From an uncultured Candidatus Rokubacteria bacterium (GTDB lineage Bacteria > Methylomirabilota > Methylomirabilia > Rokubacteriales > CSP1-6), in assembly GCA_963789955.1 (NCBI GenBank), contig CAWBMV010000022.1, positions 128,001 through 192,000 on the forward strand: a DNA stretch of 64,000 nt. Reading direction: 5' to 3'. Positions 3,101 through 64,000 of this stretch are shown in pieces. The number at the start of each line of letters is the position of its first letter. The stretch's first letter is position 1. Position numbers and translations under genes: made by a program. The notes below the pieces were generated by a model. The model did not search any database. It saw nothing but the letters and a program-made list of their open reading frames with translations, and was not told where the DNA came from.

Positions 3101-3517
3101 CGCCTGGAGCGCGTACGCCTCGCGGACCTGGTCGAAGGTCACGTTGCGCGTCACGCTGATGGACCGCGTCGACGGCCCCATCGCGCCGACGACGAAGCGC
3201 TCCCCGGCGACCTCCCGCGCGAGGCGGGCGGCGGCCAAGGTGATTTCGTGGGCGCGCTCGGCCAGAGCGTACTCGGCGAGCACGTAGGGCGCGCAGCCGA
3301 ACGTGTTGGTCGAGATGAGATCGGCGCCGGCCTCGAGGTAGGCTTCGTGGACTTTGCGGATGACGCCGGGCCGCGTCAGGTTCAGGTACTCGTTGCAGCC
3401 CTCGTACTCCGCGCCTCCGAAGTCGTCGGCCGTCAGGCTCGCGGCCTGGATCATGGTGCCCATCGCCCCGTCGAGGACGAGGATCCGCTCCTTCACCGCC
3501 GCGCGGAGTCGCGACAT
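116..3517 (-). CDS. metH: Cobalamin-dependent methionine synthase
   Basis: Starts MSRLRAAVKERILVLDGAMGTMIQ; Hcy domain GLNC and GGCCG; pterin domain GERTN; B12 motif GDVHDIGKN; C-terminal reactivation domain GYPACP. The ORF-track extension to 4510 is antisense to the next gene. Confidence 0.97.
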   Translation of the reverse strand: MSRLRAAVKERILVLDGAMGTMIQAASLTADDFGGAEYEGCNEYLNLTRPGVIRKVHEAYLEAGADLISTNTFGCAPYVLAEYALAERAHEITLAAARLAREVAGERFVVGAMGPSTRSISVTRNVTFDQVREAYALQAAALIAGGVDALLLETVQDTLNVKAAAIGVRAAMREAGVELPLMISITIEPMGTMLAGQGVEALYVALEHLDLFSIGLNCATGPEFMTDHLRSLAALSTRCVSVYPNAGLPDERGQYAETPASLAYKMTRFVDEGWVNFIGGCCGTTPAHIRALKALASGRAPRVPAAREAQAVSGIEVFYPADDNRPLFVGERTNVIGSRRFKELVVADQFEEAAEIGRAQVKNGAQVLDVCLANPDRDEPADMDRFMTQVTRKVKVPLMIDSTDAAVIEAALRHCQGKSIVNSINLEDGEERFEKVVPLLHTYGGAVVVGCIDEDKRQGMAVTRARKLAIAERCHDLLTRKYGLPARDLIFDALVFPVGTGDANYVGAAVETIEGIRAIKQRFPDCKTILGISNVSFGLPPAGREVLNSVFLYHCTKAGLDYAIVNTERLERYPSIPEEERRLAEDLIYVRGADPVAAFAAYFRERRKAPPPAETLSLDERLARYIVEGSRDGLIDDLNAKLREAAPLEIVNGPLMRGMDEVGRLFNDNQLIVAEVLQSAEAMKAAVAHLEPFMEKAEAATRGTIVLATVKGDVHDIGKNLVEIILSNNGYRVINLGIKVPPEELIAAYHTHKPDAFGLSGLLVKSAQQMVVTAQDLRAAAIEIPLFVGGAALTKRFAATRIAAEYGGLTVYAKDAMDGLDLANQLFSAPTRDALVTRLRREQASMVASAATTSEARPAAPSSAPARRLERATVPAPPDLERHVLRDVPLTHIYPYLNLQMLYGKHLGVRGLIERLLAAGDPKAQEVHEIVEALKRDAVDQRLLGAQGVYRWYRARAAGDAVILFDSSGNETARFDFPRQRDGERLCLADYVRDDADDYVALFAVTCGAGVRELASAWKERGEYVRSHALQALAIESAEGFAEMLHSRMRTLWGFPDPPELPISEKLKARYQGIRVSFGYPACPNLADQVTLFRLLEPETFGLTLTEGFMMDPEASVSGLVFHHPAAKYFKAD

Positions 3518-49876: not shown

Positions 49877-50130
49877 TGGTCGGGCGGCCCCCCGCGGAGC
49901 GGAGACCGGCGTTGCCGACGATGCCTCTCGCCGACGTCGAGGGGGTCGCCCAACTCTGTCGTTGCGCGGGCGATACTCCGGCGGCTCAGTTCGGTTGCCT
50001 CGACTGCGGCGCGCCCTGCTGCTCGGCCTGCGCGGTTCCGCTGGAATCGGTCGCCTACTGCCGTCGTTGCGCGACGGAGCTACTGGGCGCGACCGCGATG
50101 CCGAAGTCCGTATCGTTCGAGCTCTACTGA
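49876..50130 (+). CDS. Small Cys-rich putative zinc-finger protein
   Basis: CRC, CLDCGAPCCSAC, YCRRC; TGATG overlap with the upstream gene. Confidence 0.65.
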   Translation: MVGRPPAERRPALPTMPLADVEGVAQLCRCAGDTPAAQFGCLDCGAPCCSACAVPLESVAYCRRCATELLGATAMPKSVSFELY

Positions 50131-50205
50131 ACCGGCGTCGAGAAACCCGATGACCGCCGAAGACCATCGGACGTTGGTCGAGGCGGAGAGGAGCGAGCGG
50201 ATCAG

Positions 50206-50561
50206 ATGCAAACCATGTGGAGCGCGTCACTGTGGAGCTCGACGATGATCGGTGTGCGGGGTGACGGCGGCCTCACTCCGCGGCGGCGGTCGGACGCGAC
50301 CGCGCCTGCTGCGGGCGGGAGCGCGCCCGCGCGGGACGCCCAGGCGCAGCGGCCTCCGTTCGTGCGCGAGGCCCAGCGCGCGCTTCGGGACCTCGGATAT
50401 CACCCCGGCCCGATCGATGGGATGTTCGGTCCGAGATGCGGATGGCGCTGGAGAAGTATCAGCTCGCCGAGAAGCTGCCCGTCACCGGTCAGCTCGACGC
50501 GGAGACGATGGAGCGACTGGACGTCTACAAACGCCTGTTCAGCCCGGACCGCGCGCGGTAG
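50206..50561 (+). CDS. Peptidoglycan-binding domain protein; frame break near 50435
   Basis: VREAQRALRDLGYHPGPIDGMFGP followed in another frame by ALEKYQLAEKLPVTGQLD. Confidence 0.7.
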
Positions 50562-50641
50562 TACGTCGACGGCCGCCCAAGCGACCGCCTGCCTGGTGCA
50601 ACGATGGCCCCTGCCGTACAATGCTCCTACTGGAGGGCACC

Positions 50642-51251
50642 ATGGCCAACGACCGTCGCGCCCGTCCCGCCGCAGGCTCTGCCGCCGCGCGGCATCAACC
50701 ACATGGTCCTCAACGTGCGCAACCTCGAGGTGTCGCACAAGTTCTGGACCGAGATCATCGGGTTCCACTGCGTAGCCGAGCTCAAGCCGATTCCAGGACG
50801 TCAGCGCCCCAAGATGCGCTTCTATAGCGGTCTCGACGCCAAGGGCGACGTGACTCACCACGACCTGGCGCTGGCCGAGGTTCAGCCGGGCAACAACGGC
50901 GGCGCGCCGGAGGAGTGGAACCTGATGTCGGGCCGGGTCGGGCTCAACCACGTCGCGATCGCGTGGCCGGACCGCGAGTCGTGGTTGAAGCAGCTGGCAT
51001 TTCTCCAGAGCAAGGGTGTGCCGTTCCTCCGGAGGGTCAACCACGGGATGACCCACAGCGTCTACATCGCCGACCCCGACGGACACGGCATCGAGGTCCT
51101 TTACGAGCTGCCGCGCGAGGTGTGGGAGGGCGATATCGACGGCGCGCAGAACTACGCCGAGATGCTCCCGACGGAAGGCCCCGAGTCGCTCGTCGATCGC
51201 ACGGCGAATCCCGTGTTCAGCGGGCAGGCGACTCCGGCCGCTCGAGCCTGA
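50642..51251 (+). CDS. VOC family protein; frame break just after the start
   Basis: GINHMVLNV, HHDLAL, GLNHVAI, HGMTHSVYIADPDGHGIE. Confidence 0.85.
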
Positions 51252-51312
51252 TCCCCGCAGCGCCTGACTTGATCGGCGCCGACCGCGCGCAGCCGGGCGC
51301 GGTCGCGCCGGA

Positions 51313-51622
51313 TCAGGTCGCTCTGGGCGTCGGCCACCCAAGCGATTCGCAGACGCCCCGCCCCATGATCCACTCCTGGTCGCCGGCGGATAACCACGGC
51401 AGCTCGTCGGTGAAGAACGTCACGGCCCGGCGCCATGTGCAAGGAAGCCGTGTCCAGTCTGTTCCCCAGAACATGCGCCGCGGACCAAACGTGTCGTACA
51501 CGCTCCGAATGTGCTGCTGGACGTCGCGACAGGGGTAGGCCTCGACCGAGTAGCAGGGCAGCGCGGAGGCCTTGACCGCGACGTTCGGGTGGCGCGCGAA
51601 TCTGGGCGTCGACGATCAGCAT
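51313..51622 (-). pseudogene. Amidohydrolase_2 family gene remnant with a large internal deletion
   Basis: N-terminal MLIVDAQI joined directly to C-terminal ARHPNVAVK...FGPRRMFWGTDW...WIMG. Confidence 0.7.
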
Positions 51623-51642
51623 CGCGTGAGCCTGCGGGTTGC

Positions 51643-53354
51643 TTACGACGTCCGCGCGAGAGGCCCCCGCAGAAGCTGACCCGGCAGCGCGCCGGTGTGC
51701 TTGCCGTCGCGCAACAGGACCTCGCCGTTGACGACCGTCGCCGCGATCCCGCGCGTGCGCTGCACGAGGCGGCGCGCGCCCGACGGCAGATCGTCCACGA
51801 CTTCCGGCATCTCCGCGGCGATCGTCTCCGGGTCGAAGACGACCAGATCGGCCGCCATCCCTTCGCGGACGAGCCCGCGATTGGCGAAGCCCCACAAGGT
51901 CGCTGGCACGAGCGTGAGCATGCGGACGGCCTGCTCGAGCGTGAACGCCTGCTTGCGCCGGACCCAGTGGTAGAGCAGGTGCGTCTGCAGCGACGAATCC
52001 ATGAGCTGCGACACGTGCGCGCCCGAGTCGGAGAACGTGACGACGGCACGCGGGTGGCGCATCAGCTCGAGGGCGTAGTCCTGGTCCTCATTGGCGATCG
52101 GCTGCAGGAAGAACAGGTCGAGGTCCTTGGCCAGGGCCAGATCGATCATGGTCTCGGCCGGATGCTGGCCGCGCTCGCGCGCGACCTCGGCGACGGTGCG
52201 ATGCGGCCCTTCGACCGTATCGAAGACGAGCAGCCAATCGTAGTCGGGCGGCTTCGCCTCGGTTCCGACCGGCCGCCGGCCGTCCTTCTCACCGGAGGCC
52301 TCGATGAGTCGACGGCGCAGCTCGGGATCGCGCAGACGCCGGCGCTGCTCGGCGAGCGGCAGCGCGCGCAGCTCCTTCCACACCGGGAGCCGATCGAACG
52401 GCATTTGCGTCTTGAACGACAGCAGCGCGCTCAACGACCGGCTGTGGACCTGCGCGAACATCCGGCCGCCCGCCGCGGCCGTCTCGTCGAGTAGCGCGAG
52501 GTATTTACGCCACGCGTCCGGCACGCCCCGGCGGCTGAAGACGCCGAACGTGATCGGGCGCCCGGTCTCGACGGCGAGATCGCGCAGCCGCGTGTGATAC
52601 TCGCGGAGCCCGGGTCGTTCGCGGTGCGGTCGACGCCTTCGCCGGCGATCTCGAATAGCCCGGCGTTCAGATCGCCCATCACGCCGACCAGCCGGCGCAC
52701 TTCGTCCCACGTCGCCAGACGGCTGGCGACCGGCTGACCGTTCGGCGTCTCGTGGGCCGGCGAGCGCGACGTGGTGAAGCCGATCGCGCCGGCGCGGATC
52801 GCGTCGCGCACCTGACGCTCCATCGCCCTGAGATCGTCCTCGGTGGCCGCCTGCTCGAACGCGCGCTCGCCCATCACGAACGTGCGCACGGCCGAGTGGC
52901 CCACGTAGCCGCCGTAGTTGATGCCCTTGGGCAAGGCCTCGAGCGTGTCGAGGAACTCGGGGAACGTGGTCCAGCGCCACTTGATCCCGGCTTCCATCGC
53001 CGCCGGCGAAATGTCCTCGGCGCGCTGGAGATTGCGGACGACGAGGTGCTTGTTCTCCTCGGCGCAGGGAGCCAGGGTGAAGCCGCAGTTGCCCATCACG
53101 ACGCTGGTGATGCCGTGATAGCAGGACGAGGTTCCGAGCGGATCCCAGAAGATCTGCGCGTCCATGTGCGTGTGGCCGTCGACGAAGCCCGGCGTGACGA
53201 CGTGGCCTTCGGCGTCGATCACCTCGCGCGCGCGCTCGCGGATGCGCCCGATCGTGGTGATGCGGCCGTGCCGCACGCCGACGTCGGCCCGATACCGCGG
53301 AAGCCCGGATCCATCGATGACCGTGCCGTTCTTGATTACCAGGTCGTACGACAT
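51643..53354 (-). CDS. N-acyl-D-amino-acid deacylase family amidohydrolase; frame break near 52610
   Basis: DLVIKNGTVIDGSG, PGFVDGHTHMD, GNCGF, SDSGAH, ADLVVFDP. Confidence 0.9.
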
Positions 53355-53399
53355 TCTCAGCTCTCCTCAGGACGCGTCGGGGTCAGTGACACCTTCCGA

Positions 53400-53611
53400 T
53401 TTCGAATTCATTGACTCGCGTCAGCGGAGGCCGCTTCGGCTTACTACCGCTTTCGAATCAATTGACTCGCCTCAGCGGAGGCCGCTTCGGCTCGTACTAC
53501 CGCTTTCGAATTGATAGACTCGCCTCAGCGGAGGCCGCTTCGGCTCGTACTACCGCTTTCGAATTCATTGACTCGCCTCAGCGGAGGCACCGCTTCGGCT
53601 CGTACTACCGC
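53400..53611. repeat. Tandem array of four 51-55 bp units
   Basis: Units start at 53400, 53451, 53504 and 53557; consensus tttcgaattcattgactcgcctcagcggaggccgcttcggctcgtactaccgc. Confidence 0.95.
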
Positions 53612-54165
53612 TGGCCCTGTGCCCGGTCGGCGATCTGGACCGACTTCTTCTCGGGGTCGAAGCGTAAGGTCTTCTTCGTCTCGACGTCGCCGCCCGTGAC
53701 GCGGAGGAAGAACGTGTCGTCGCCGTATTCGATCGAGTGGATGTCGCCGACCGCGAACACCGAGGCATGGCCGGCCTCGTTCATGAAGTCGCGTGAGACC
53801 TCGACCTCGGCGTAGCCGGGCTTGCTGCCGTCGTCCAGTCGGCGCCACCGGCGCATGCGCGTCGGGTTCTTGTAGTTGCCGTAGATCACCCAGCACGGGC
53901 CGTGGTCGTGGGGCACGGACTTGCCGCCTTTTTCACGCCCGTGCACCAGCACGTGCACGTCGGTCTCGGGATCGTGGCCGATCGTCGTGCGCTCGCGATA
54001 GGGCACCGGGTCGCCCAGGTGCTTCTTCAGGAGCTCGGGGTTGCGCAGGAGCTTCTCGAGGTGATCGCGGATCTCGGCGAGCCCTGACGGGACGCCCTTC
54101 GCCTTGATGGTGGCTCGAGTATCGGCGAGGAACTGATCGAGGGTGTACGCGGTTTCGCTGGCCAT
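53605..54165 (-). CDS. Cupin / thiol-dioxygenase-like protein
   Basis: PHDHGPCWVIYG and DIHS (three-His cupin pattern); SD AAGGAG. Confidence 0.7.
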   Translation of the reverse strand: MASETAYTLDQFLADTRATIKAKGVPSGLAEIRDHLEKLLRNPELLKKHLGDPVPYRERTTIGHDPETDVHVLVHGREKGGKSVPHDHGPCWVIYGNYKNPTRMRRWRRLDDGSKPGYAEVEVSRDFMNEAGHASVFAVGDIHSIEYGDDTFFLRVTGGDVETKKTLRFDPEKKSVQIADRAQGQR

Positions 54166-54257
54166 GGCAATCTCCTTTTGATCCGAACTCTCTGCCCTGG
54201 ATGATATCAGGTCACGGACGAGCGGAGGGCGGCAGCCTTGTAGCATACTTGGCGGCC

Positions 54258-55438
54258 ATGAAAGTCTTCGTCTTCGATCTTCTGCCGTACGCCGAGCATC
54301 TGGATCACCTGAAGGACGGCAAGGAGCTTCCGTGGCCGTTGCCGCGACGCCATTTCAAGCCCGAGGTCGCCGCGCGGACCTATGCCGAGCACCTCGACGC
54401 CTGGGAGGCCATGGACCGCCTCGGCTACGACGGGGTGGGATTCAACGAGCATCACACCTCGCCGTACGGCCTGATGAACTCGCCGAACTTATTGGCCGCG
54501 GCGGCCGCTCAGCGTACCCAGCGGCTCAAGCTCCTCGTGTACGGCAATCTGCTGCCGCTCCACGATCCGCTCCGGCTCGCCGAGGAGCTGGCGATGCTCG
54601 ACTGCATGTCGAACGGGCGCATCGTTTCCGGATTCGCCCGCGGCATTCCGCGCGAGCACAACGTCTACAACGTCTCGCTGGCCGACTCGCGCGCCCGCTT
54701 CGAAGAGGCCTGGGAGATCATCCGCCGCGCGTGGACGGAAGAGGTCTTCTCGTACGAGGGCCGTTTCTGGTCGTATCGCGACGTCGCCATCTGGCCGCGG
54801 CCCGTGCAGACGCCGCATCCGCCCGTGTGGGTGCCGGTCACCGGCAGCAAGGAGACGATCGAGTGGGCGGGACGCCACGACATTCCCATCACGCCCGGGC
54901 CTGGCGCCGATCCGCGGATTGCGTGAGGACATCATCCGCTACTACGAGCGCTGCCTCGCCCGAGCACGGTCATCGGCTCACGCCGGATCACCTGATCATC
55001 CAGGCGACCGCGTACGTGGCGGACAGCAAGGCCCAGGCGGTGCGGGAAGCCGGACCCTACGTGCTCTACTTCAACCGGACGCTCTTCAGCCACGGCAACA
55101 TCACGGAGTCCTCGCTCCAGCGCGACGCCGGCTATTTGAGCTCGGGGTCGTTCGACTACGTGAGACCCGAGAACATGCATGCCGTGTCGGGCTCGCGCGA
55201 GCGCTATCGCGACATGACGATGGCCGACGTCGAGCGCGAGGCCGAGCAGTGGCCCTGGGGCACCGCGGACGAGGTCATCGAGAAGATCATCGCGGCCGCC
55301 GACCACGCCGGGGCCTCGACCGTGCTGGTCAACATGAACCGCGGCGCCATGCCGCAGGAGATGTTCCTCGAGCAGGTGCACCGGTTCGGCAGCAAGGTGC
55401 TCCCCGCGCTGAGGTCCCATACCGTCACGGCTCGATGA
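54258..55438 (+). CDS. LLM class flavin-dependent oxidoreductase; frame breaks near 54900 and 54960
   Basis: FNEHH, SPNL, PLRLAEELAMLD, GFARG, PRPVQTPHPPVW. Confidence 0.88.
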
Positions 55439-56292
55439 TCGATCGCCGCGTCGCAGTGATCCTGGCGACGGTCGCCCTGATCCTCTGGCCGCGAGGCGTT
55501 CCGGCCGCCGAACCGACTCCCGAGCTCGTCGCCCGGGGGAAATATGTGTTCGGCGCCGCCGGCGGCTGCGCGTGCCACACGACCCCTGACGGAGCCGGCC
55601 TGAATGCCGGCGGCACGAAGTTCGACCTGTCCTTCTTCGGCGTCGTCTACACGCCGAACATCACGCCGGACGCCGAGACCGGGATCGGGAAGTGGACCGA
55701 CGCGCAGGTGATCAACGCCATTCGCCGCGGCGAGCGCCCGGACGGCGCGAAGCTGTTTCCGATCCATCCGTACAAGTACTTCAGCAACATCGCCGACGAC
55801 GAGATCGAAGCGCTGGTCGCCTATCTGAGATCCGTGAAGGCGATCACATCATCGGTGCCGGCACGATCTCTGAAGATTCCGGTTCCCACGAGAACGATCG
55901 TTCCCGCGGTGAAGATCGCGCCGCGAGACGGGCGGGCGCGTGGCGCGTATCTCGCGGGTGGGGCGGGGCACTGCGCCGAGTGCCACACGCCCAGGCGATT
56001 CGACGCGTCCACGGACGACACGAAATTCCTCGCGGGCGGGCCGGGACCGGAGCGAAGCCTGGCGGCCAACATCACGCCGCACAACGAGACCGGGATCGGC
56101 CGCTGGACCGAGGCTCAGATCGCGCGGTTCCTGCGAACCGGCGTGAAGCCCTCGGGGCAGGAAGCGTCCTCGCTGATGCGGACCGTCATCGTCGGCACGT
56201 CGGCCGGATTCAGGGACCTCACGGAGGCGGACGCCCTCGCGATCGCCCGGTACCTCAAGACCGTGCCGCCGATCGAGAACAAGGTCCGCTAG
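55435..56292 (+). CDS. Periplasmic di-heme cytochrome c
   Basis: Signal peptide; ARGKY...GCACHT, PNITPDAETGIG, RGAYL...CAECHTPR, ANITP. Confidence 0.88.
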   Translation: MIDRRVAVILATVALILWPRGVPAAEPTPELVARGKYVFGAAGGCACHTTPDGAGLNAGGTKFDLSFFGVVYTPNITPDAETGIGKWTDAQVINAIRRGERPDGAKLFPIHPYKYFSNIADDEIEALVAYLRSVKAITSSVPARSLKIPVPTRTIVPAVKIAPRDGRARGAYLAGGAGHCAECHTPRRFDASTDDTKFLAGGPGPERSLAANITPHNETGIGRWTEAQIARFLRTGVKPSGQEASSLMRTVIVGTSAGFRDLTEADALAIARYLKTVPPIENKVR

Positions 56293-56298
56293 AGCCGG

Positions 56299-57496
56299 CT
56301 ACTCGTCGCGGGCGCCCGACGTTCTCTGCTTGAACTCCGCGGGGACGTCACGGCCCGCATCGGTGAACGCGCGGCGGATCGCCTCGACGTTCGGGCTGAA
56401 GATCGTCTTGCGGTTGTCGCGCGCCCACTCGTTCGAGCCGCGCGTCGTCTCGAGCGAGCCCTGGAAGCGCGGCATCACGTAACGGGCGAAGAGCTCGTAC
56501 GAGCGCAGGGTCTGCTCGCGCGTCGCCCACTCGTGGGCGCGGAAGAGCAGGCCGCCGAAGCCGCCGCCGCTCTGCTCGCTGCAGGTGCTCGATGCCCGCG
56601 CACGACCGTCTCGACCGAGCCGACCAGCGTGGTGCCCATCTTCACGCCCTCGGTCAGCGGATCGTCGGAGCGGCCCGGCGGCCGGCCGAGCGTTTCCTCG
56701 AAGTAGGTGACGGTCTCGTGGCGCTCGGCGTCGCTTCACCTGCCGCAGCGCTTCTTCGTCGTCCTCGGCCACGTGCACGTTGACGACGAGCCGCCATTCC
56801 TTCCGGTCCATCGTCTTGCCGTGCTTGGCGGCCGTCTCCTCGCCGAGCTTCCACTGATTCGCCAGCGCTTCGGGCCCACCCGGAAGTCCCGCGCCGAGCG
56901 AGAGCACGCCGAGGCCGTGACGGCCCGCGGCGATCACGCCGGCCGGCGTCATGACGCTCGCCACTGCGATCGGGAAGTGCGGCGCGGTATACGGCGCCAG
57001 GTGCAAACGCGCCTGCCGCAGCTCGAACCAGTCGGTCTTCATCGTCACCGGCTCCTCGCAGCGGAGGAGCTGCATGATCGCGTCGAGCGATTCGTCCATC
57101 CGTCGGACGCTGGGTCACCGGCTCGATGCCGAGCATGTACGCATCGGAAACGAGCGCGCCCGGGCCGCAGCCGAGCATCGAGCGGCCGCGCGTCATGTGA
57201 TCGAGCTGGACGAAGCGCTGCGCCACCAGCAGGGGGTGGTGGTAGGGCAGGCTCGTCACGCCCGAGCCGAGCATGATGTGACGCGTGCGCTCGGCGGCGG
57301 CGGCGATGAAGAGCTCGGGCGAGGCGATCAGCTCCCAGCCGGCGGAATGGTGCTCGCCGACCCACACCTCGTCGTAGCCGAGGTAATCCAGCCACTCGAT
57401 CAGCTCCATGTCGCGTCCGAGGGCCAGGGTGGGGTTCTCGCCGATCCGATGGAACGGGGCCAGGAAGATTCCGAAGCGCATTCCTTTGTGGGCCAT
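56299..57496 (-). CDS. LLM class monooxygenase (limonene 1,2-monooxygenase-like); about 3 frame breaks
   Basis: RFGIFLAPFH, GEHHSAGWE, LPYHHP, LDHMTRGR, AHEWA, SYELFARYVMP. Confidence 0.88.
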
Positions 57497-57563
57497 GGTG
57501 AGGATCCTAGCACGGGGCCCGCTGAATCGCGCGCGAGGCCGCGCGGTGCTACCATGCCGCCCC

Positions 57564-58608
57564 ATGACAGATCGAACGATCCGCGTGGGGTTCGTGGGCG
57601 CCGGCGCCAATTCGCGCAAGCATCACATTCCAAAGCTCAAGGCTCAGCCGGGAGTCGAGCTGGCCGCGGTGGCGAACCGGTCGAAGGAATCCGGCGATCG
57701 GATCGCGCGCGAGTTCGGGATCGCGCGGGTCTATGCCGACTGGCGCGAGCTGGTGCGTGCCCCGGACATCGACGCGGTGTGTATCGGTACGTGGCCGAAC
57801 ACGCACAGCGAGATCACGCGCGCGGTGCTCGAGCACGGCAAGCACGTGCTCTGCGAGGCGCGCATGGCGATGAACGCCGCCGAGGCGCGCACCATGCTCG
57901 ACGCCGCGCGCCGAGCGCCGCAGCTCGTGACGCAGCTCGTGCCGGCGCCGAACACGCTCGAGGTCGATTCGACCCTGCAGGCGTTGCTGGCCGAGGGCTA
58001 CGTCGGCGACGTCCTGGCCGTCGAGATCCAGGCCAATCAGGGCCAGTTCGTCGACGCCGAGGCGCCGCTCCACTGGCGGCAGGATGCCGCCCTCAGCGGC
58101 CTCAACGTCATGACGATGGGCATCTGGTACGAGGCGCTGATGCGCTGGCTCGGTCCGGCGCGCCGTGTGATGGCGCTCACCAAGATCGCGGTGCCCCGGC
58201 GCAAGGACGCGGCGGGCGCCTGGCAGGACGTGCGCGTGCCCGATCACGTCGAGATTCTCGCGACTCTGGGGCGTGGTGCATCGGCGCACATGCGCTTCAG
58301 CACGGTCACGGCGCTGGCGCCGCCCAGCGAGGTGTGGATCTTCGGGACGGAGGGCACGCTCCGGGTCGAGTCCGACGCCAGGCGCGTCTCCGGCGGACGG
58401 CGCGGCGACAAGGCCCTGCGCGAGATCCCGATCCCCGCGCGAGCGCCGCATCGGCTGGCGCGTCGAGGAAGAGTTCGTCAACGCGATCCGCGGCCGCGAG
58501 AAGGTCACGCGCACGACCTTCGAGGACGGCGTGCGCTACATGGAGTTCACCGAGGCCGTCTGGAAGAGTGCCCAGAGCGGTCAGGCGGCCGACGTCGCCG
58601 AGCTGTGA
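57564..58608 (+). CDS. Gfo/Idh/MocA family oxidoreductase; frame break near 58445
   Basis: RVGFVGAG, IDAVCIGTWP, GKHVLCEARMA, TTFEDG. Confidence 0.88.
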
Positions 58609-58615
58609 CGAGCGT

Positions 58616-58810
58616 CTAGCGCTCCTTCGTCAGCACGCGAACCACCACGATCACGACGGCGCCCACCAGGAGCGCCAGCCCGGCGAAGAGGAGCGCGGCC
58701 GTCAGCGGGCTCATCGGCGCGTCCCGCAGCGGGCCGCCGTGATCGGCCGCCGCCGGCGCCGCGGCGACGAGGCTCGCGAGCGCCGCGAAACGACGCATCG
58801 AGGCGATCAC
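58616..58810 (-). CDS. Small membrane protein
   Basis: Signal-like N-terminus, ADHGG, one TM segment; GTGA overlap with the upstream gene. Confidence 0.55.
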   Translation of the reverse strand: MIASMRRFAALASLVAAAPAAADHGGPLRDAPMSPLTAALLFAGLALLVGAVVIVVVRVLTKER

Positions 58811-59277
58811 CCGCCGGTCTTCGCCGCCGCCTGAAGCTCTCGCACGTGCTCGGCCCAGTGGCGCGCGAGTACCTCGAGCCGCTGCCGTCCCGTGATCGTC
58901 TCGCCGTTCGCGCGCCGGAAGCACGGCTTGTCGAGGTGCGTCGAGCTCCGCGCGGCCTGCACGAGCCGCGCGTGCGCCTGCCGGAGCTGGGTCAGGAGCT
59001 CGTCGAAGCTCTCGTGCGCGTGGAGCCGGCGGCACACCTCGTTGATCGTGTCGGCATCGCCCGGCAGCGGCCAGGGCGGCCCGCCGAGCGCGGCCGCCTG
59101 GATCCCCCAGGCGGTCGCATCGTGGAAGTAGAGGAAGTGCATCAACACGTCGCGCGCCTGCCAGCGATCGACCCTCGCGCTGGTCGTCCGGCCGGCGCCG
59201 TCGAAGTACCCCAGGGTTTCCTTGACGACGCGATCGAGCTCGCTCAGGAGCGCTTCGTTCGAGGGCGACGTGCTCAT
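58807..59277 (-). CDS. DinB/MDMPI-like helical protein
   Basis: WQARDVLMH and HWAEHVREL. Confidence 0.7.
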   Translation of the reverse strand: MSTSPSNEALLSELDRVVKETLGYFDGAGRTTSARVDRWQARDVLMHFLYFHDATAWGIQAAALGGPPWPLPGDADTINEVCRRLHAHESFDELLTQLRQAHARLVQAARSSTHLDKPCFRRANGETITGRQRLEVLARHWAEHVRELQAAAKTGG

Positions 59278-59290
59278 CCCGTGACTCCCT

Positions 59291-60841
59291 TCAGCGGGGT
59301 TTCTTCTTGAGGAAGAGATTGATGTCGTCCGGCGTGATCAGGTCGGGTGCGGTCCAGCCGTCGAGGTCGTACTCGGCCATGCATTGCTCGGCGAATCCTC
59401 TGAACTGCGCCGCCCGGCCGCTGTCATGCGCCATCTGCCACGCGATCAGCCGAACGGTCTCCGGCGCGCCCGCATAGTTCCGCTCGTACAGCTCGTGCCG
59501 GCTGCCGAACTCGGTGCCGATGGCGTCCCACAAGAGCTTCATCAGCTTGATCCGGTCCACCGCGTCGGTGCCGTCGGAGCCGCGCAGGTACTTCTCGAGC
59601 AACGGACGCAGCGCCGGCGACTTGAAGTCGACCGCGTGCGAGTTGAGATAGATCAGCCCGCTGGCCAGGATGCTCTCGGTCAGCTCCTTGATCCGCGGAT
59701 AGGCGACCGGCGCGAAGACCCGGTAGGCCTGCGCGGACTCTGGATTCGGCAGCACCGTCGCGCCCGACCACGGCACCGGGTTGCGCGTCATCGCGTCGGT
59801 GAGCCCCCAGAACAGGTTGCGCCAGGCGATCACCTCGCCGACCGTCGCCTGCACGTTCTTCGTGTCGGTCGAGCCGACGGCGTCGACCGCCTTCAGGAGC
59901 AGACCGGCGATGAAGTCGAGCTTCACGGCCAGGCGTGTGCAGCCGTGGAGCATCGCGCGCGGGAAGAACCCGGAGCCCTGGAAGAACGTGTTCGATTTCT
60001 GCACGTTCTCGTAGACGAAGACGTTCTCCCACGGGACCAGGGCGTGATCGAGGACCAGGATCGCGTCGTTCTCGTCCATCCGGCTCGAGAGCGGATAGTC
60101 GAACGGGCTGCCCATCACCTCGGCGGTCATCGTGTAGGACGGCCGGCAGATCAGCTTCACGCCCGGCGTGTTCATCGAGGCGATGAAGACCGCGGCGAAC
60201 TCCTTGGTCTTGATCGGGGTGGTCGAGGGATGCGCGATGAAGTTGGCGTGCGTCAGCGCCGAGCCGGTGGCGACGACCTTCGCGCCGCTGACGATCAGGC
60301 CGGCGTCGGTCTCCTTCTCGACGTGCACGTAGACGTCGGCCACCTGGTCCGGGGGCTTCTGCCGATCGACCGGCGGCTGGACGAGGGCGTGATTCAGGTA
60401 GAGGACGCGCTCCTGCGCCGCGCGATACCACCGGCGCGCGTTGTCCTGATACGGCGCGTAGAAGTCGGCGTTGGCGCCGAGCGTCGCCAGGAAGGCCGCC
60501 TTGTAGTCCGGCGAGCGCCCCATCCAGCCGTAGGTCAGGCGCGACCACGCGGCGATCGCGTCGCGCGCCGCGACCAGCTCGTCGGCGCTCGTCGGCGCGC
60601 GAAAGTAGCGGTGCGTGTAGCCGCCGGAGCCGGTATCGGTCGGACACGTCAAGGTGGCCTGCGACGCCGGATCGTGGAGCGCGTCGTAGAGCCGCGCCAG
60701 CATCCGCGCGGGATTGCGAAAGGCCGGGTGCGTCGTGACGTCGTCGACCCGCTCGCCGTAGATCCAGATCTCGCGGCCGTCGCGCAGGCTCTCGAGGAAC
60801 TCCTTGCCGGTGAACGGCCGTGTGGGGCCCGTGGTCATCAC
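59291..60841 (-). CDS. hpaB: 4-hydroxyphenylacetate 3-monooxygenase oxygenase component family
   Basis: [56 protein letters not shown]. Confidence 0.9.
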
Positions 60842-60848
60842 GGCTGCC

Positions 60849-61737
60849 TCAGGCGGCGACGGCCGGCCGAACCTTGGTGGCGACCAGGTCGAGCAGCTCG
60901 AGCATGCGCCCGAGATCGTCGCGGCGGAAGTCGACCATCAGATGCGCGAGGCCGAGTCGCTGGTACTCGCCGAAGAGGTCGGTGACCGCCTGCGCGCCCT
61001 GCCGAACGAGATCATCGCTGAGGGCGAGCCGCAGCGAGGTCGTCAGTGATTTCCACGGGCGCCCGGCGGCGTCGGCGGCGGCCCGCAGGCGCGCGATGCG
61101 GTCGCGCATCTCCGCGGGGGTCTTGCCCGACGCGTGCCATCCGTCGCCGAGCGTGACGACGCGGCGAAAGGCGCCGGCGCTGTCGCCGCCGACCCAGATG
61201 GGCGGATGCGGCTTCTGGACCGGCTTGGGGGCGAAGCCGATGTCGCTGAAGCGGTAGAACTCCCCGTCGAAGGCCGGCCGATCCGACGTCCACAGCTCCT
61301 TGAAGACGCGCAGCATCTCGTCCGCTTGCTGGCCGCGCACGATGGAACGGCGCGCCGAGGATCTCGAGCTCCTGCTTCCACCAGCCCACGCCGACACCGC
61401 AGATCAGCCGTCCGTTCGAGAGCGTGTCGATCGTGGTCAGCATCTTGGCCATGAGGACGGGGTGGCGATGACCGAGCACGAAGACCGAGGCGCCGAGACG
61501 CGCCTTGGTCGTGCACATCGCCGCCGCCGCGAGTAAGGTGACGGGCTCGAGATACGGCTTTTCGGGCGGATGGGGGAATCGGCCGCCCGGATAGCCGGAT
61601 GACGTATAGGGAAAGACGACGTGATCGCTGACCCAGAGAGAGGCCATCCCGAGCCCTTCGGCCTGACGGGCGAACGTCACGAGCGCGTCGCGGGTGGCGA
61701 CGGGGCCTTGCATGGGAAGCTGGCAGCCGATGTCCAT
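60849..61737 (-). CDS. LLM class, probably F420-dependent, oxidoreductase; frame break near 61340
   Basis: [45 protein letters not shown]. Confidence 0.85.
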
Positions 61738-61779
61738 GGTGACTCCTTTCGACTCACGTGATCCGAGTGGCTCTCGGTG

Positions 61780-63304
61780 TCACCCCCGCCGCACGAGCTC
61801 GGCGGCCTCCACGATGGCCCTCAGCTTCGCCTCGGCGACGCTCGCGGAGCTGACCGGATTGTCGGCGAAGGTCGCGAAGCCGCAATCGGGCGTCAGCAGC
61901 ACGCGATCCGCGCCGAAGAGCTTCACGGCGCGCCGCGCGCGCTCGGCGATCTCCTCGACCGTCTCCACGCGATCGTGCTTCTGGTTGACGACGCCGACGC
62001 CGATGCGGACGTCTCGCGGCAGGTCGGCGAGCACGTCCAGCTCACCGGCGCGCGGCGTGCACAGCTCGAGAAAGAGCGTACCGACGTCGAGCGAGGACAG
62101 GAGCGAGACCAGCGGGCGGTAGTCGCCGGCCAGCGCCGCCTCCTCGTTCCGGGTCCAGTTGCCCCGGCACACGTGCAGCCCGAGCCTCGAGCGTGGCAGA
62201 CCGGCGACGACCCGATTGACGAGCCCGCGCGCGAACTCGAGCTCGCGCGCCCGCGTCGCCCTTCTCGCTGAGCGCGCCGCACATGAAGCTCCGCGTGTTC
62301 TTGGCGCCGGTGTAGACCACTTCGGCGAGCACCGGCTCGTCGAGCTGCACGAGCGCGACGCCGGCGGCGAGCAGGAAGTGGATCTCCTCGCGCAGGACCC
62401 GCACGACGTCGTCGGCCAGGTGCTCCCGTGATCGATAGAAGCGATCCGAGACGCACTCGAGCCACATCAATCGGGTGAGGAGATAGGGCCCGGGCAGCGC
62501 GATCTTCACCGGCTTGTCGGTCAGCCCGTGAACGAATGCGTGCTCGTGAGCGGCCAGCGGTCGACTCCGGCCGAGCGGGCCGAAGAGGGCGGGATGACGG
62601 ACCTCGGAGGCCGGAACGTCGAGCGAGCGCATCTCGCGCTCGAACTTCTCGGGATCGTCGACGAGCGGGAGCAGGTCCGTGAGCGGGATCAGCTGACAAT
62701 TGTCGAGCCGCCCGCCCACGAAGCTCGCGTAGTTGTCGCGCCGCTGCTCGCCGTCCGAGATGACGTCGGCGCCCGACCGGAGCTGCGCGTCGACCGCGAG
62801 GCGGACCGCGTCGTCGGCGGTCGCCTGGAACTCCGCCTCGCCGAGCCGGCCTTCGAGGTGCTCGTGGATCGCCTGGAGCATCCAGCGCGGGCGCGGCCAG
62901 CTCCCGATGCCCATCACGGACAGCGGGCGGATGGCGGACGCCGCGGCCGGCGCCGGAAGCGTGGCCGGGACGGTGACGGCGACCGCCTGGCGCGTCACGG
63001 GCGCCAGCGCCGCCGCGCTCGCGCGCCGTGAGGGCTTACGCTCGGCCAGCGTGCCCTTGCAGACGAGAAAGCTTCGCTCCTTGCCCCGCCGGACGAACGA
63101 CACGAGCTCGTTGCCGGTCATCCGGCACCAGGCGGGGAAGTCCTCTTCGACCGAAATCTCGGTGGAACGAAACTCGAGGAGCTGGCCGCGCTCCAGCGGG
63201 TCCATGTGCTGGCGGATCAGGAGAAGGAGCCCGTTGCCGCAGTCCAGATCTCCGCCGTCGAAGCTCAGGTCGGCTTCGTGCTGGTGACGGTCAACGGGCT
63301 CCAT
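61780..63304 (-). CDS. TusA-like domain fused to a cobalamin-independent methionine synthase (MetE C-terminal)-like domain; frame break near 62250
   Basis: N-terminal FDGGDLDCGNG...PAWCRMTGN; Ala/Pro linker; GSWPRP, DGEQRR, VQLDEP, HVCRGN, PDCGF. Confidence 0.85.
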
Positions 63305-63313
63305 CGCCGAGGC

Positions 63314-63676
63314 TTAGTAGCTGACGCAGGGGCTGCCCTCGGACAGGAACTCCACGAGCTTCGCGCCGCCGACGATCGCGGCACCGGCCACCAGGTTGTT
63401 CTCGTCGAGCTTGCGCTTCTTGAAGCACGGCGAGCAGACGTAGATCGTGCCGCCGGCCTTCGCGAAGTTGTCCATCAGCTCGCGCAGCGGCGCGAACCCC
63501 TCCTCGCGGATGTCGTCGGCGTAGCCCTTCTGGGCGAGGCGCACGCCCTCGACGCTCAGGAACACCAGGGTCTCCTTGCCCGAGCCGACCGCGGCGTTGG
63601 CGACCACGAAGCCCACCGTGGCCTTGTCCTGGTTGTCCTTCGCGTGGGTGAGGCTGACACAGAATCGGTTGGCCAT
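63314..63676 (-). CDS. DsrE/DsrF-like protein
   Basis: VFLSVEGVRL, GGTIYVCSPCFKKR, IVGGAKLVE. Confidence 0.85.
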   Translation of the reverse strand: MANRFCVSLTHAKDNQDKATVGFVVANAAVGSGKETLVFLSVEGVRLAQKGYADDIREEGFAPLRELMDNFAKAGGTIYVCSPCFKKRKLDENNLVAGAAIVGGAKLVEFLSEGSPCVSY

Positions 63677-63679
63677 GAC

Positions 63680-63925
63680 TCAGTTCTCCTTTCGACGGAT
63701 CTGGTACACGGGATGCTGCTCTGCGATCAACGTGTGGCCGGTCATGCGGCACCAGGCCGGAATATCGGCCCGCGCGCCGGGGTCGCGCGCGGTGAGCTGC
63801 AGGAGCTGCCCCGGTTTCATTGCCTCCATGCGCAGGCGAAGCTCGAGCACGAGATCGCCGCAGCCGAGATCGCCCGCATCCCACTGGGTGTCGGCGGCTC
63901 GCGGAGCCGGCGTACTGGAGGTCAT
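63680..63925 (-). CDS. TusA/SirA family sulfur carrier
   Basis: WDAGDLGCGDL, DPGARADIPAWCRMTGH. Confidence 0.88.
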   Translation of the reverse strand: MTSSTPAPRAADTQWDAGDLGCGDLVLELRLRMEAMKPGQLLQLTARDPGARADIPAWCRMTGHTLIAEQHPVYQIRRKEN

Positions 63926-63999
63926 GGGTCGCTGCGCTCCCCGTTGCGCTCGTAGATCTGCTCGATCCTTCGTGTGTCCAGGCGCGAGGCCGGCGTGTC
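63922..63999 (-). CDS. 3' end of an upstream gene truncated by the window edge
   Basis: Open frame ...DTPASRLDTRRIEQIYERNGERSDP-stop with ATGA overlap onto the TusA-like start. Confidence 0.45.
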   Translation of the reverse strand, partial: DTPASRLDTRRIEQIYERNGERSDP

Positions 64000-64000
64000 C

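Follow-up and report, generated by a model that had tools for sequence, protein, structure and literature searches.

The window analysed here, a 64,000-nucleotide stretch of a contig from an uncultured Candidatus Rokubacteria bacterium, ends in a compact operon encoding a small TusA-like carrier, a DsrE-family protein and a second TusA-like domain fused to a MetE-like zinc core (Table 1). As the sequence-only reading of this DNA had described, the three genes are tightly packed on the minus strand, with gaps of 3 and 9 bp, and are coupled to a further upstream gene, here recognized as phnC-like, whose stop codon overlaps the tusA start by 4 nt (ATGA). The motifs that it had listed are also all present: DAGDLGCG and DGGDLDCG, rather than CPxP, in the two TusA-like domains, CSPC in DsrE, and HVC and PDCG in the MetE-like part. 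Reading beyond position 64,000, which it had advised, brought into view an ABC importer upstream.

Table 1. Features of the operon and the upstream importer, in window positions unless prefixed L001
Feature	Position	Strand	Remarks
tusA-like gene	63680-63925	minus	81 aa; Pfam TusA PF01206, E 5.5e-11
dsrE	63314-63676	minus	120 aa; DsrE PF02635, E 2.9e-15
tusA::MetE-core fusion gene	61780-63304	minus	507 aa in intact relatives; frameshifted in window
TusA-like domain 2	63056-63304	minus	N-terminal to MetE-like core, residues 1-83; PF01206, E 4.1e-06
Cys342 codon, in RSFMCGALS	62279-62281	minus	outside MetE zinc set
HVC, zinc ligands His377 and Cys379	62167-62175	minus	invariant, 159/159
PDCG, zinc ligand Cys474	61879-61890	minus	158/159, one gap
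phnC-like ABC ATPase, 3' end	63922-64000	minus	gene runs past window edge
phnE-like permease	L001:6701-7516	minus	PhnE TIGR01097, above cut-off
HtxB-like 'hybrid' periplasmic binding protein	L001:7517-8392	minus	290 bits to HtxB 5ME4

The TusA::MetE fusion that had been claimed from the window is intact in relatives but is not a single open frame in the window itself, a point missed earlier: one extra base at about 62247-62249 places HVC and PDCG in another frame, and PF01717 is matched on either side of the break. This frameshift is most likely an assembly error, because the extra base is absent from four close relatives and from the contigs of 4/4 independent runs, and because the fetched loci yielded 159 full-length fusion ORFs. 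A second one-base frameshift, in the phnC-like gene (L001:6325-6328), is absent from the contigs of three of the four runs. Parts of the operon are covered by contigs from RNA libraries, which are no proof of transcription.

The operon is widespread, with 180 relatives among 265 pattern matches in GTDB genomes (the best 80 were fetched, at 61-92% identity) and 449 among 571 pattern matches in metagenomes, where loci are partly redundant and counts do not represent independent events. Given these 180 and 449 relatives, the arrangement is not a product of chance. The conserved neighbourhood that had been proposed as a check was found, with tusA, dsrE and the fusion gene as a unit: among 111 loci with enough upstream DNA, DsrE was present in 109 and free TusA in 103, as called by a codon-score script that may miss short genes, and at least one dedicated uptake or envelope module occurs in 83. 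Cultured environmental carriers belong to Duganella, Massilia, Paraburkholderia and Paracoccus; a phylum-wide sample of 380 Pseudomonadota genomes yielded no new fusions, too few for a case-control comparison. In a sister clade TusA domain 2 is fused to OsmC instead of the MetE-like core, and a distant subfamily pairs that core with an OsmC-like protein, without adjacent TusA or DsrE. An Rfam scan of nine loci returned no matches. One accessory protein, a membrane protein, has a CxxC motif. For accessory proteins H168 and H522 the ESM Atlas offered no usable family; the former may resemble MerC, with no Pfam support. No study of the module was found in a literature search whose coverage excluded most subscription journals and preprint supplements.

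The MetE-like core retains a His/Cys/Glu/Cys zinc ligand set, with H377, C379 and E413 in all 159 aligned sequences and C474 in 158; His377/Cys379 correspond to H641/C643 and Cys474 to C726 of E. coli MetE. The homocysteine-binding residues S135, E186 and D322 (MetE S433/E484/D599) are likewise invariant in an 86-row alignment, residue roles and MetE numbering being those of PMC7857596. As noted from the window, the N-terminal folate barrel of MetE is absent, and TusA takes its place in the 507 aa protein; the full MetE model TIGR01371 gives 54 bits against a cut-off of 930. The predicted structure of the fusion (pLDDT 90.6) has MesD (3RPD) as its best fold match (E 1.7e-21), which is also the best sequence match (E 2e-26, 96 bits), and the UROD-like barrel superfamily matches the same model. 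No corrinoid partner occurs among the recurring neighbours, and DUF1852 (MesX) is absent from 62 scanned neighbours and from the recurring neighbour clusters. The conservation of both residue sets points to homocysteine on the zinc, yet the folate domain is absent and no corrinoid partner recurs; as all three homocysteine-binding residues are kept, the sequence suggests that homocysteine or methionine, and not the TusA cysteine, would occupy the zinc site. Routine methionine synthesis, attributed earlier to metH in the window (125-3493), is indeed covered, since metH is found in 46 of 50 hosts.

The carrier cysteines of TusA and DsrE are nearly invariant. In the free TusA-like protein, Cys22 (GDLGCG) is found in 123 of 133 rows, with 10 gaps, and Cys59 (PAWCR) in 132; in TusA domain 2, Cys22 is found in 152 of 159 (7 gaps) and Cys60 in 158; and both Cys81 and Cys84 of the DsrE CSPC motif occur in 159/159. 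Both cysteines of the TusA-like carrier are matched in E. coli TusA (3LVJ), the first aligning with that of CPEP. The PAWCRMTG motif singled out earlier does occur twice, but its cysteine is not special, aligning with that of PGFCTFM in E. coli TusA. The CPxP of TusA sulfurtransferases is replaced by CGD or CGN, and the TusA equivalog NF001423 scores 43.6 bits against a cut-off of 78. The closest solved structure to DsrE is 3MC3, a DsrE3A homologue.

The earlier description of the enzyme was right about its zinc motifs and overlooked an extra residue, Cys342, which is a cysteine in 172/172 fusion-type loci and has no equivalent in 18 other MetE-like matches of the same genome. The predicted structure places it at the tip of a hairpin, within the loop that follows the D322 strand. 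At this position the sister clade has 15 cysteines and five in-frame TGA codons among 20 loci; the TGA-bearing genes fall into at least two separate clades, and SelA is present in 5/5 of their hosts. A search for a SECIS element showed hairpins just downstream of the TGA, but hairpins also form in Cys-type genes of similar GC content. The position is probably a selenocysteine in some relatives, and the main text of a 2026 review of more than 110 prokaryotic selenoprotein families contains no such form under PF01717 or MetE. Selenocysteine in an enzyme is a mark of a reactive residue, not of a selenium substrate.

For the importer, the phnC-like ATPase matches PhnC TIGR02315 on its N-terminal part (E 1.5e-28), and the binding protein scores far higher against HtxB than against PtxB (82 bits) or PhnD (60 bits). 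It keeps W52/Y97/T129/S130/R178/D206 of HtxB, whereas N128S, F158H and M176F are found in 49/49 operon binding proteins (49 of 50, one Rv1680-like outlier, L186, being dropped). Thus, of the HtxB-specific set W52, N128, F158, M176, R178 and D206, only W52, R178 and D206 remain, and the protein has the features of the hybrid HtxB-like class: about 50% identity to HtxB, a Trp cap and S128/H158/F-or-Y176. The passages surveyed in the two papers on this class (PMC5700983, PMC6629693) give neither gene context nor a measured ligand for hybrids. The hybrid importer occurs in 46 of the 111 related loci and is missing in 65; SsuA-type importers occur in three, and a PhnD-fold protein is associated with the core in two independent ways. 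Within the binding-protein clade, one member (99/99 support) is encoded behind an HtxA-like dioxygenase (48% to HtxA) in an htxABCD-like operon, and another hybrid belongs to an arsenosugar-like cluster; family membership thus does not fix the ligand.

Selenium genes lie near 11 of 184 fusion-type loci: selA in six related loci (with trxB in a Paracoccus locus), selB in two and selD in three. SelD is encoded by 45/50 hosts versus 21/100 random Pseudomonadota, and by both of two distant small-genome homologues. Within Planctomycetota, however, it is found in 14/15 fusion carriers versus 148/213 non-carriers (p 0.07), and within the family of genome G023 in 14/14 versus 206/237 (p 0.23), with SelA in 4/14 versus 74/237 (p 1.0). 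That the operon occurs almost only in selenium users is true but weak, since the host lineages are themselves 73% and 88% SelD-positive. A role in selenium supply for selenocysteine was rejected for lack of SelA enrichment. The recurring neighbours include no sHdr or tRNA-thiolation genes.

We tentatively read the operon as a corrinoid-free route by which methylated selenium, and perhaps sulfur, is salvaged, the chemistry being inferred. The cargo of the importer would be a small oxyanion whose small substituent points at the Trp cap, the most plausible being methylseleninate (CH3SeO2-) or selenite, or their sulfur analogues. It would be reduced by the dithiols of TusA and the CxxC of DsrE and kept as Cys-S-Se-CH3, and the adduct would pass to Cys342 at the catalytic face; there homocysteine activated by zinc would accept the methyl group, giving methionine and a protein perselenide. 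The relay or thioredoxin would then move selenium on towards SelD, and importer-less loci would use methylselenol or methanethiol of volatile or internal origin. The invariance of Cys342, the TGA in 5/20 sister genes and the nearby selenium genes speak for such a salvage route, as do the conserved zinc and homocysteine-binding residues, the SelD of the hosts and of the two distant homologues, the YedE directly upstream in one locus and the association with PhnD-fold proteins. Against it, the lineage-matched SelD controls are weak and SelA is null. In a Cys-S-Se-CH3 adduct, moreover, the normal target of a thiolate is the sulfur or selenium and not the carbon. A precedent for salvage is Methanococcus, which under selenium starvation induces a TusA system, YedE, phosphonate/phosphate-type transporters and the methylselenide demethylase SdmABC, and uses methylseleninate (PMC11097638). 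It is rather doubtful that the operon is a dedicated selenium-scavenging pathway, in which a high-affinity selenite/methylseleninate importer would serve a cobalamin-free methylselenol demethylase with Cys/Sec replacing the corrinoid, the sister clade then being an unlisted MetE-fold selenoprotein family.

A somewhat unlikely alternative, close to what the sequence-only reading had proposed, is that a desulfurase loads sulfur (or selenium) on the free TusA, from which it would pass through DsrE and TusA domain 2 to Cys342, with the zinc site coupling it to an acceptor such as a bound amino-acid electrophile, for example in a PLP-free homocysteine route, and with the importer supplying thiosulfate, sulfite or the acceptor. 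NifS/IscS-like genes are co-oriented with the operon in L094, L096, L099, L100 and L135, which suggests that sulfur flows to the enzyme and not away from it, as salvage would have it; a SufS-like gene is divergent in Paracoccus-type loci, and the first TusA cysteine holds the persulfide position. DsrE3A-to-TusA thiosulfonate transfer is documented (PMC4175335), and the SsuA-type importers, together with a YedE directly upstream in one locus, point the same way. However, only 6/111 loci have a desulfurase within 7 kb, CPxP is replaced, no homoserine-activating genes were found among the recurring neighbours, and neither a SAM nor an SAH riboswitch was found in the nine scanned loci.

It is unlikely that the operon carries out O2-independent phosphite or hypophosphite oxidation, with the P-H bond activated by zinc and the electrons going to a disulfide or persulfide on a carrier, so that the unit would stand in for HtxA or PtxD. 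HtxB is the closest solved relative of the binding protein, whose Trp cap is kept; phosphite binding is predicted for the hybrid class by Adams et al. (PMC6629693); the clade member behind the HtxA-like dioxygenase has a 14/18 Pho-box match; and no anaerobic pathway for hypophosphite oxidation is known (10.64898/2026.03.11.711166). Nevertheless, a crude consensus scan of 50 upstream regions revealed no excess of Pho boxes (the best matches reached 10-13 of 18, as in shuffled sequence), htxA or ptxD occurs in 0/111 loci, a PtxD-like match in 2/50 hosts and C-P lyase in only 11/27 importer-bearing hosts. A hypophosphite operon, our first idea, was lowered to an improbable one on these counts. 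The loci that miss the importer also argue against phosphorus oxidation, which leaves the homocysteine-binding residues unexplained.

These residues and the zinc ligands, with MesD as the best fold match, would suit a fifth family of core methionine synthases using an ordinary methyl donor, in which TusA and DsrE would serve only to maintain Cys342 in its reduced form or to pass the methyl group on. MetH redundancy is no bar to it, because MesD co-occurs with MetH in 75% of cases according to PMC7857596. It is quite unlikely, however, as the methionine synthase models reach at best 94 and 69 bits on the two pieces and 183 on the sister core against a cut-off of 406, MesX and corrinoid partners are missing among the recurring neighbours, and the uptake and envelope modules go unexplained. 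Very unlikely is a role in metalloid metabolism, such as binding of As(III) species by the dithiol carriers and demethylation or thiolation of methylarsenic by the enzyme: the hybrid in the arsenosugar-like cluster, the binding-protein fold shared by AioX and ArrX, and the accessory CxxC motif favour it, but ars genes are not among the recurring neighbours of the operon (one ArsR-family regulator is found in L095), and high-affinity import suits nutrition, not detoxification.

Each part of the module belongs to a known family. The module shares with MesA-MesD, especially MesD (3RPD; Price et al. 2021, PMC7857596), a single barrel without the folate domain and with zinc and homocysteine residues kept, but structural identity is 24%, an N-terminal TusA domain and the Cys342/Sec loop are added, and in place of MesX or corrinoid proteins it has TusA, DsrE, OsmC-like proteins and importers as partners. 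Its 96 bits lie far below the family thresholds of that paper, and no DUF1852 is found among the scanned neighbours; the main text does not mention TusA or DsrE. SdmABC of Methanococcus (PMC11097638) would be analogous in the job proposed for the operon, the freeing of selenium from methyl-selenium, in methyltransferases annotated as UROD-like, the superfamily matching the fusion model, and in its co-induction with a TusA system and YedE. It is, however, archaeal and combines a corrinoid protein and two methyltransferases with coenzyme M, whereas the operon has no corrinoid protein among its recurring neighbours and its acceptor would be homocysteine. With htxABCD and the hybrid HtxB proteins (PMC5700983 and PMC6629693) the operon shares about 48% identity to an HtxB, the Trp cap, D206/R178 and the order binding protein-permease-ATPase, but it has the hybrid substitutions and lacks htxA, ptxD and a Pho-box signal. 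The Metallosphaera DsrE3A/TusA relay (PMC4175335) and the IscS-TusA relay are alike in the position of the TusA catalytic cysteine and the likeness of DsrE to 3MC3; the operon differs in CG[D/N] for CPxP, the DsrE CxxC and its link to a zinc alkyltransferase fold. The genomics-inferred SAO system (Haft and Gwadz, 10.1101/2022.07.06.499078) likewise joins an uptake ABC transporter, a DsrE-like CxxC protein and a Cys/Sec-exchange enzyme, but the latter is MerB-like, the transporter belongs to another family, and the system is confined to anaerobes.

Many soil and freshwater bacteria may use the operon to obtain selenium or sulfur from methylated compounds. According to a review (PMC9312934), prokaryotes have no identified high-affinity selenium transporter, and the only methylselenide demethylase that we found described is the corrinoid-dependent archaeal system. 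The operon ties the questions of selenium transport, methylselenide use, the predicted ligand of hybrid HtxB proteins and anaerobic hypophosphite oxidation to one small set of proteins, and an enzyme of MetE fold that relies on an extra Cys/Sec and on carrier proteins would, if true, represent new chemistry under most readings.

The tusA-like, dsrE and fusion genes were confirmed as a minus-strand set with gaps of 3 and 9 bp, and the upstream gene thought to be coupled to them overlaps tusA by 4 nt. Pfam assigns the domains that the sequence-only reading had proposed (TusA; DsrE; TusA plus Meth_synt_2), and the metH gene reported in the window is also present. Both domains of the TusA::MetE-like fusion are encoded; however, its single open frame is broken in the window by one surplus base, which puts the HVC and PDCG motifs in another frame. 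As this base is missing from four close relatives and from the contigs of 4/4 runs, the frameshift is most likely an assembly error. One-base frameshifts also seem to split an LLM oxidoreductase, an oxidoreductase and phnC (window 50000-64000 and L001:6325-6328); such splits are typical of long-read assembly, and apparent pseudogenes in this genome should therefore be treated with care. The second TusA cysteine, noted earlier in both TusA-like domains, is common to E. coli TusA and hence no novelty.

Features of the module, its genomic surroundings and related loci (L001, own locus extended past the window edge; other L-handles, fetched loci; G000, own genome)
Feature	Location	Remark
tusA-like	window 63680-63925 (-)	
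dsrE	window 63314-63676 (-)	
tusA::metE-like fusion	window 61780-63304 (-)	surplus base at ~62247-62249
metH	window 125-3493	
HtxB-like binding protein	L001:7517-8392	past window edge
phnE-like permease	L001:6701-7516	past window edge
phnC-like ATPase		past window edge, contiguous with tusA
Apparent frameshift splits (examples)	window 60849-61737, 57408-58608; L001:6325-6328	
4-Hydroxyphenylacetate 3-monooxygenase-like oxygenase	window 59291-60841 (-)	
Extended free TusA	L013:6879-7496, L014:6710-7297, L038, L045, L061, L073	
Membrane/secreted protein pair (examples)	L082:9853-11937; L101:5801-7963	
MetE-like core with FMC motif	L221:6765-10392, L186:6436-9576	beside Rv1679-like acyl-CoA dehydrogenase and Rv1680-like PhnD-fold genes
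htxABCD-like operon	L083:10761-14584	Ciceribacter plasmid NZ_LS974446.1; diverged HtxA-like dioxygenase (48%), hybrid binding protein, Pho-box-like site upstream
Arsenosugar-like cluster	L084:6043-13003	Roseomonas plasmid NZ_CP061178.1; TIGR04282 glycosyltransferase, two radical SAM genes
selD and transglutaminase-like gene	G000:C6:164505-166660 (L088)	

The search for relatives and neighbourhoods revealed a conserved unit, with 180 relatives among 265 pattern matches in GTDB genomes (best 80 fetched) and 449 among 571 in metagenomes (80 fetched), in hosts including Rokubacteria, Betaproteobacteria, Planctomycetota, Acidobacteria and Paracoccus. Among 111 fusion-type loci, each with at least 5.5 kb of upstream DNA, DsrE was present in 109, free TusA in 103 and an HtxB-like protein in 46. 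Thirty-one of these loci have a second DsrE, 20 a transglutaminase-like protein, 18 an uncharacterised pair of membrane and secreted proteins and 6 a desulfurase; htxA and ptxD occurred in 0/111. Several small genomes (2.5-3.1 Mb) carry the three core genes alone. The unpublished genome G026 (locus L043) contributes one row to the host tallies, and no claim hangs on it alone. In 21 loci, a membrane protein with CxxC and a secreted protein with CPTGH, matching no Pfam or NCBIfam family, substitute for or join the ABC importer. Some free TusA proteins, mostly from Planctomycetota, bear an N-terminal extension of ~100 aa with several conserved, CxxC-type cysteines that possibly binds metal. The flanking oxygenase and LLM-class oxidoreductases accompany the operon solely in close Rokubacteria relatives and lie outside the conserved unit.

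The unit also exists in other layouts. A sister clade (44-49% identity) has tusA, dsrE and tusA::OsmC with a separate core gene, and locus L200 encodes a fusion-type core as a separate gene. A third form, found in two small Pseudomonadota genomes and detailed from one, has no TusA or DsrE adjoining the core, which is accompanied there by an OsmC-like protein, a PhnD-fold protein and an acyl-CoA dehydrogenase-like gene. Of the loci with an FMC-bearing core, L221 has an OsmC-like gene and a thioredoxin-like gene alongside; a MetE-like core was also matched in L222.

All four MetE zinc ligands, among them those in the motifs noted in the MetE-like half, and three of three homocysteine-binding residues are conserved (residue roles from Price et al., PMC7857596). 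The predicted structure (pLDDT 90.6) best matches MesD (3RPD); however, the enzyme belongs neither to MesD nor to full MetE, and the operon's carriers are TusA-like but without CPxP. The distinctive residue is Cys342 in RSFMCGALS, a cysteine in 172/172 fusion-type loci; at this position 20 sister loci have 15 cysteines, 5 in-frame TGA codons and nothing else. The TGA forms are spread over at least two clades, and SelA is present in 5/5 of their hosts. In a check for a SECIS element, RNA hairpins folded a short way past the TGA, as they also did in Cys-type genes of comparable GC content. PF01717, MetE and PF01206 are not listed in the main text of a review from 2026 on selenoproteins of prokaryotes (PMC13188914). 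In the model, the loop following the D322-bearing strand carries Cys342 at the tip of a hairpin, a position that from TIM-barrel anatomy would be on the catalytic face. Eighteen further MetE-like matches in the own genome, at 25-33% identity, make up a large and unexplained set of paralogues, and the Cys342 motif was not seen in them.

Reading beyond position 64000 disclosed ABC importer genes contiguous with tusA. In many Betaproteobacteria the importer is placed between dsrE and the fusion gene, which ties it to the unit. Its binding protein scores 290 bits against hypophosphite-binding HtxB and at most 83 bits against PtxB or PhnD. The operon proteins retain W52, R178 and D206 but differ from true HtxB by N128S, F158H and M176F (49/49 copies), and by sequence fall into the class that Bisson et al. 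(PMC5700983) and Adams et al. (PMC6629693) describe as 'hybrid', for which phosphite was put forward as the ligand by modelling. A hybrid HtxB-like importer that may take up an arsenical is found within the arsenosugar-like cluster of a Roseomonas plasmid.

The operon anatomy and the conserved residues are observed. Tentatively, the largest share of features would be accounted for by methyl-selenium (or methyl-sulfur) salvage, a possible scheme whose chemistry we infer throughout: a small oxyanion would be imported, reduced and tethered on cysteines of TusA and DsrE, its methyl group would pass via Cys342 to zinc-bound homocysteine, and selenium would be released towards SelD. A precedent by function, not by homology, is selenium-starved Methanococcus, which is described as using methylseleninate and inducing YedE and a TusA system together with phosphonate/phosphate-type transporters and SdmABC, a corrinoid demethylase (PMC11097638). 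One locus has YedE directly upstream of tusA, and three have SsuA-type importers. In Paracoccus the unit is flanked by selB, a desulfurase gene, selA and trxB. Selenium genes lie near 11/184 fusion-type loci (6 related loci with selA, a further 2 with selB and 3 more with selD). SelD is found in 45/50 hosts versus 21/100 random Pseudomonadota; however, the host lineages are rich in SelD. The background in Planctomycetota is 183/251, with 14/15 for fusion carriers (p 0.07) and 35/38 for fusion plus sister carriers (p 0.003, ancestry ignored). For the family of host genome G023, SelD was detected in 14/14 carriers against a background of 220/251 (p 0.23), and SelA in 4/14 carriers versus 74/237 others. 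Given these lineages and SelA counts, a link to selenocysteine synthesis is unsupported. In the own genome, selD is directly followed by a transglutaminase-like gene whose 46-59% identity to the one next to the Paracoccus cluster hints at a transglutaminase-like family associated with selenium.

Persulfide-fed insertion is a somewhat doubtful alternative, consistent with NifS-like genes co-oriented with the unit in five loci and with the DsrE3A/TusA chemistry described in PMC4175335. Oxidation of reduced phosphorus is unlikely: the binding protein is kin to HtxB, and one clade member (99/99 support) lies on the Ciceribacter plasmid behind the HtxA-like dioxygenase, where the Pho-box match is 14/18, but a Pho-box excess is absent in 50 upstream regions, PtxD-like matches occur in just 2/50 hosts, C-P lyase is found in 11/27 importer-bearing and 3/23 other hosts, and another hybrid binding protein sits in an arsenosugar-like cluster. 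According to 10.64898/2026.03.11.711166, no pathway of anaerobic hypophosphite oxidation is known. There is little likelihood of an ordinary core methionine synthase; the enzyme has the same build but scores well under the cut-off of every methionine synthase model, and metH is present in 46/50 hosts. A small chance remains for an explanation outside those considered, and arsenic handling, to which the Roseomonas importer would relate, is improbable.

No study of the module was found in the literature searched, which lay outside subscription journals and preprint supplements. The SAO system (10.1101/2022.07.06.499078) is a loose parallel, and a review states that no high-affinity selenium transporter has been identified in prokaryotes (PMC9312934). 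The system is real and widespread, apparently undescribed so far, and offers a clear catalytic marker together with a testable substrate question.
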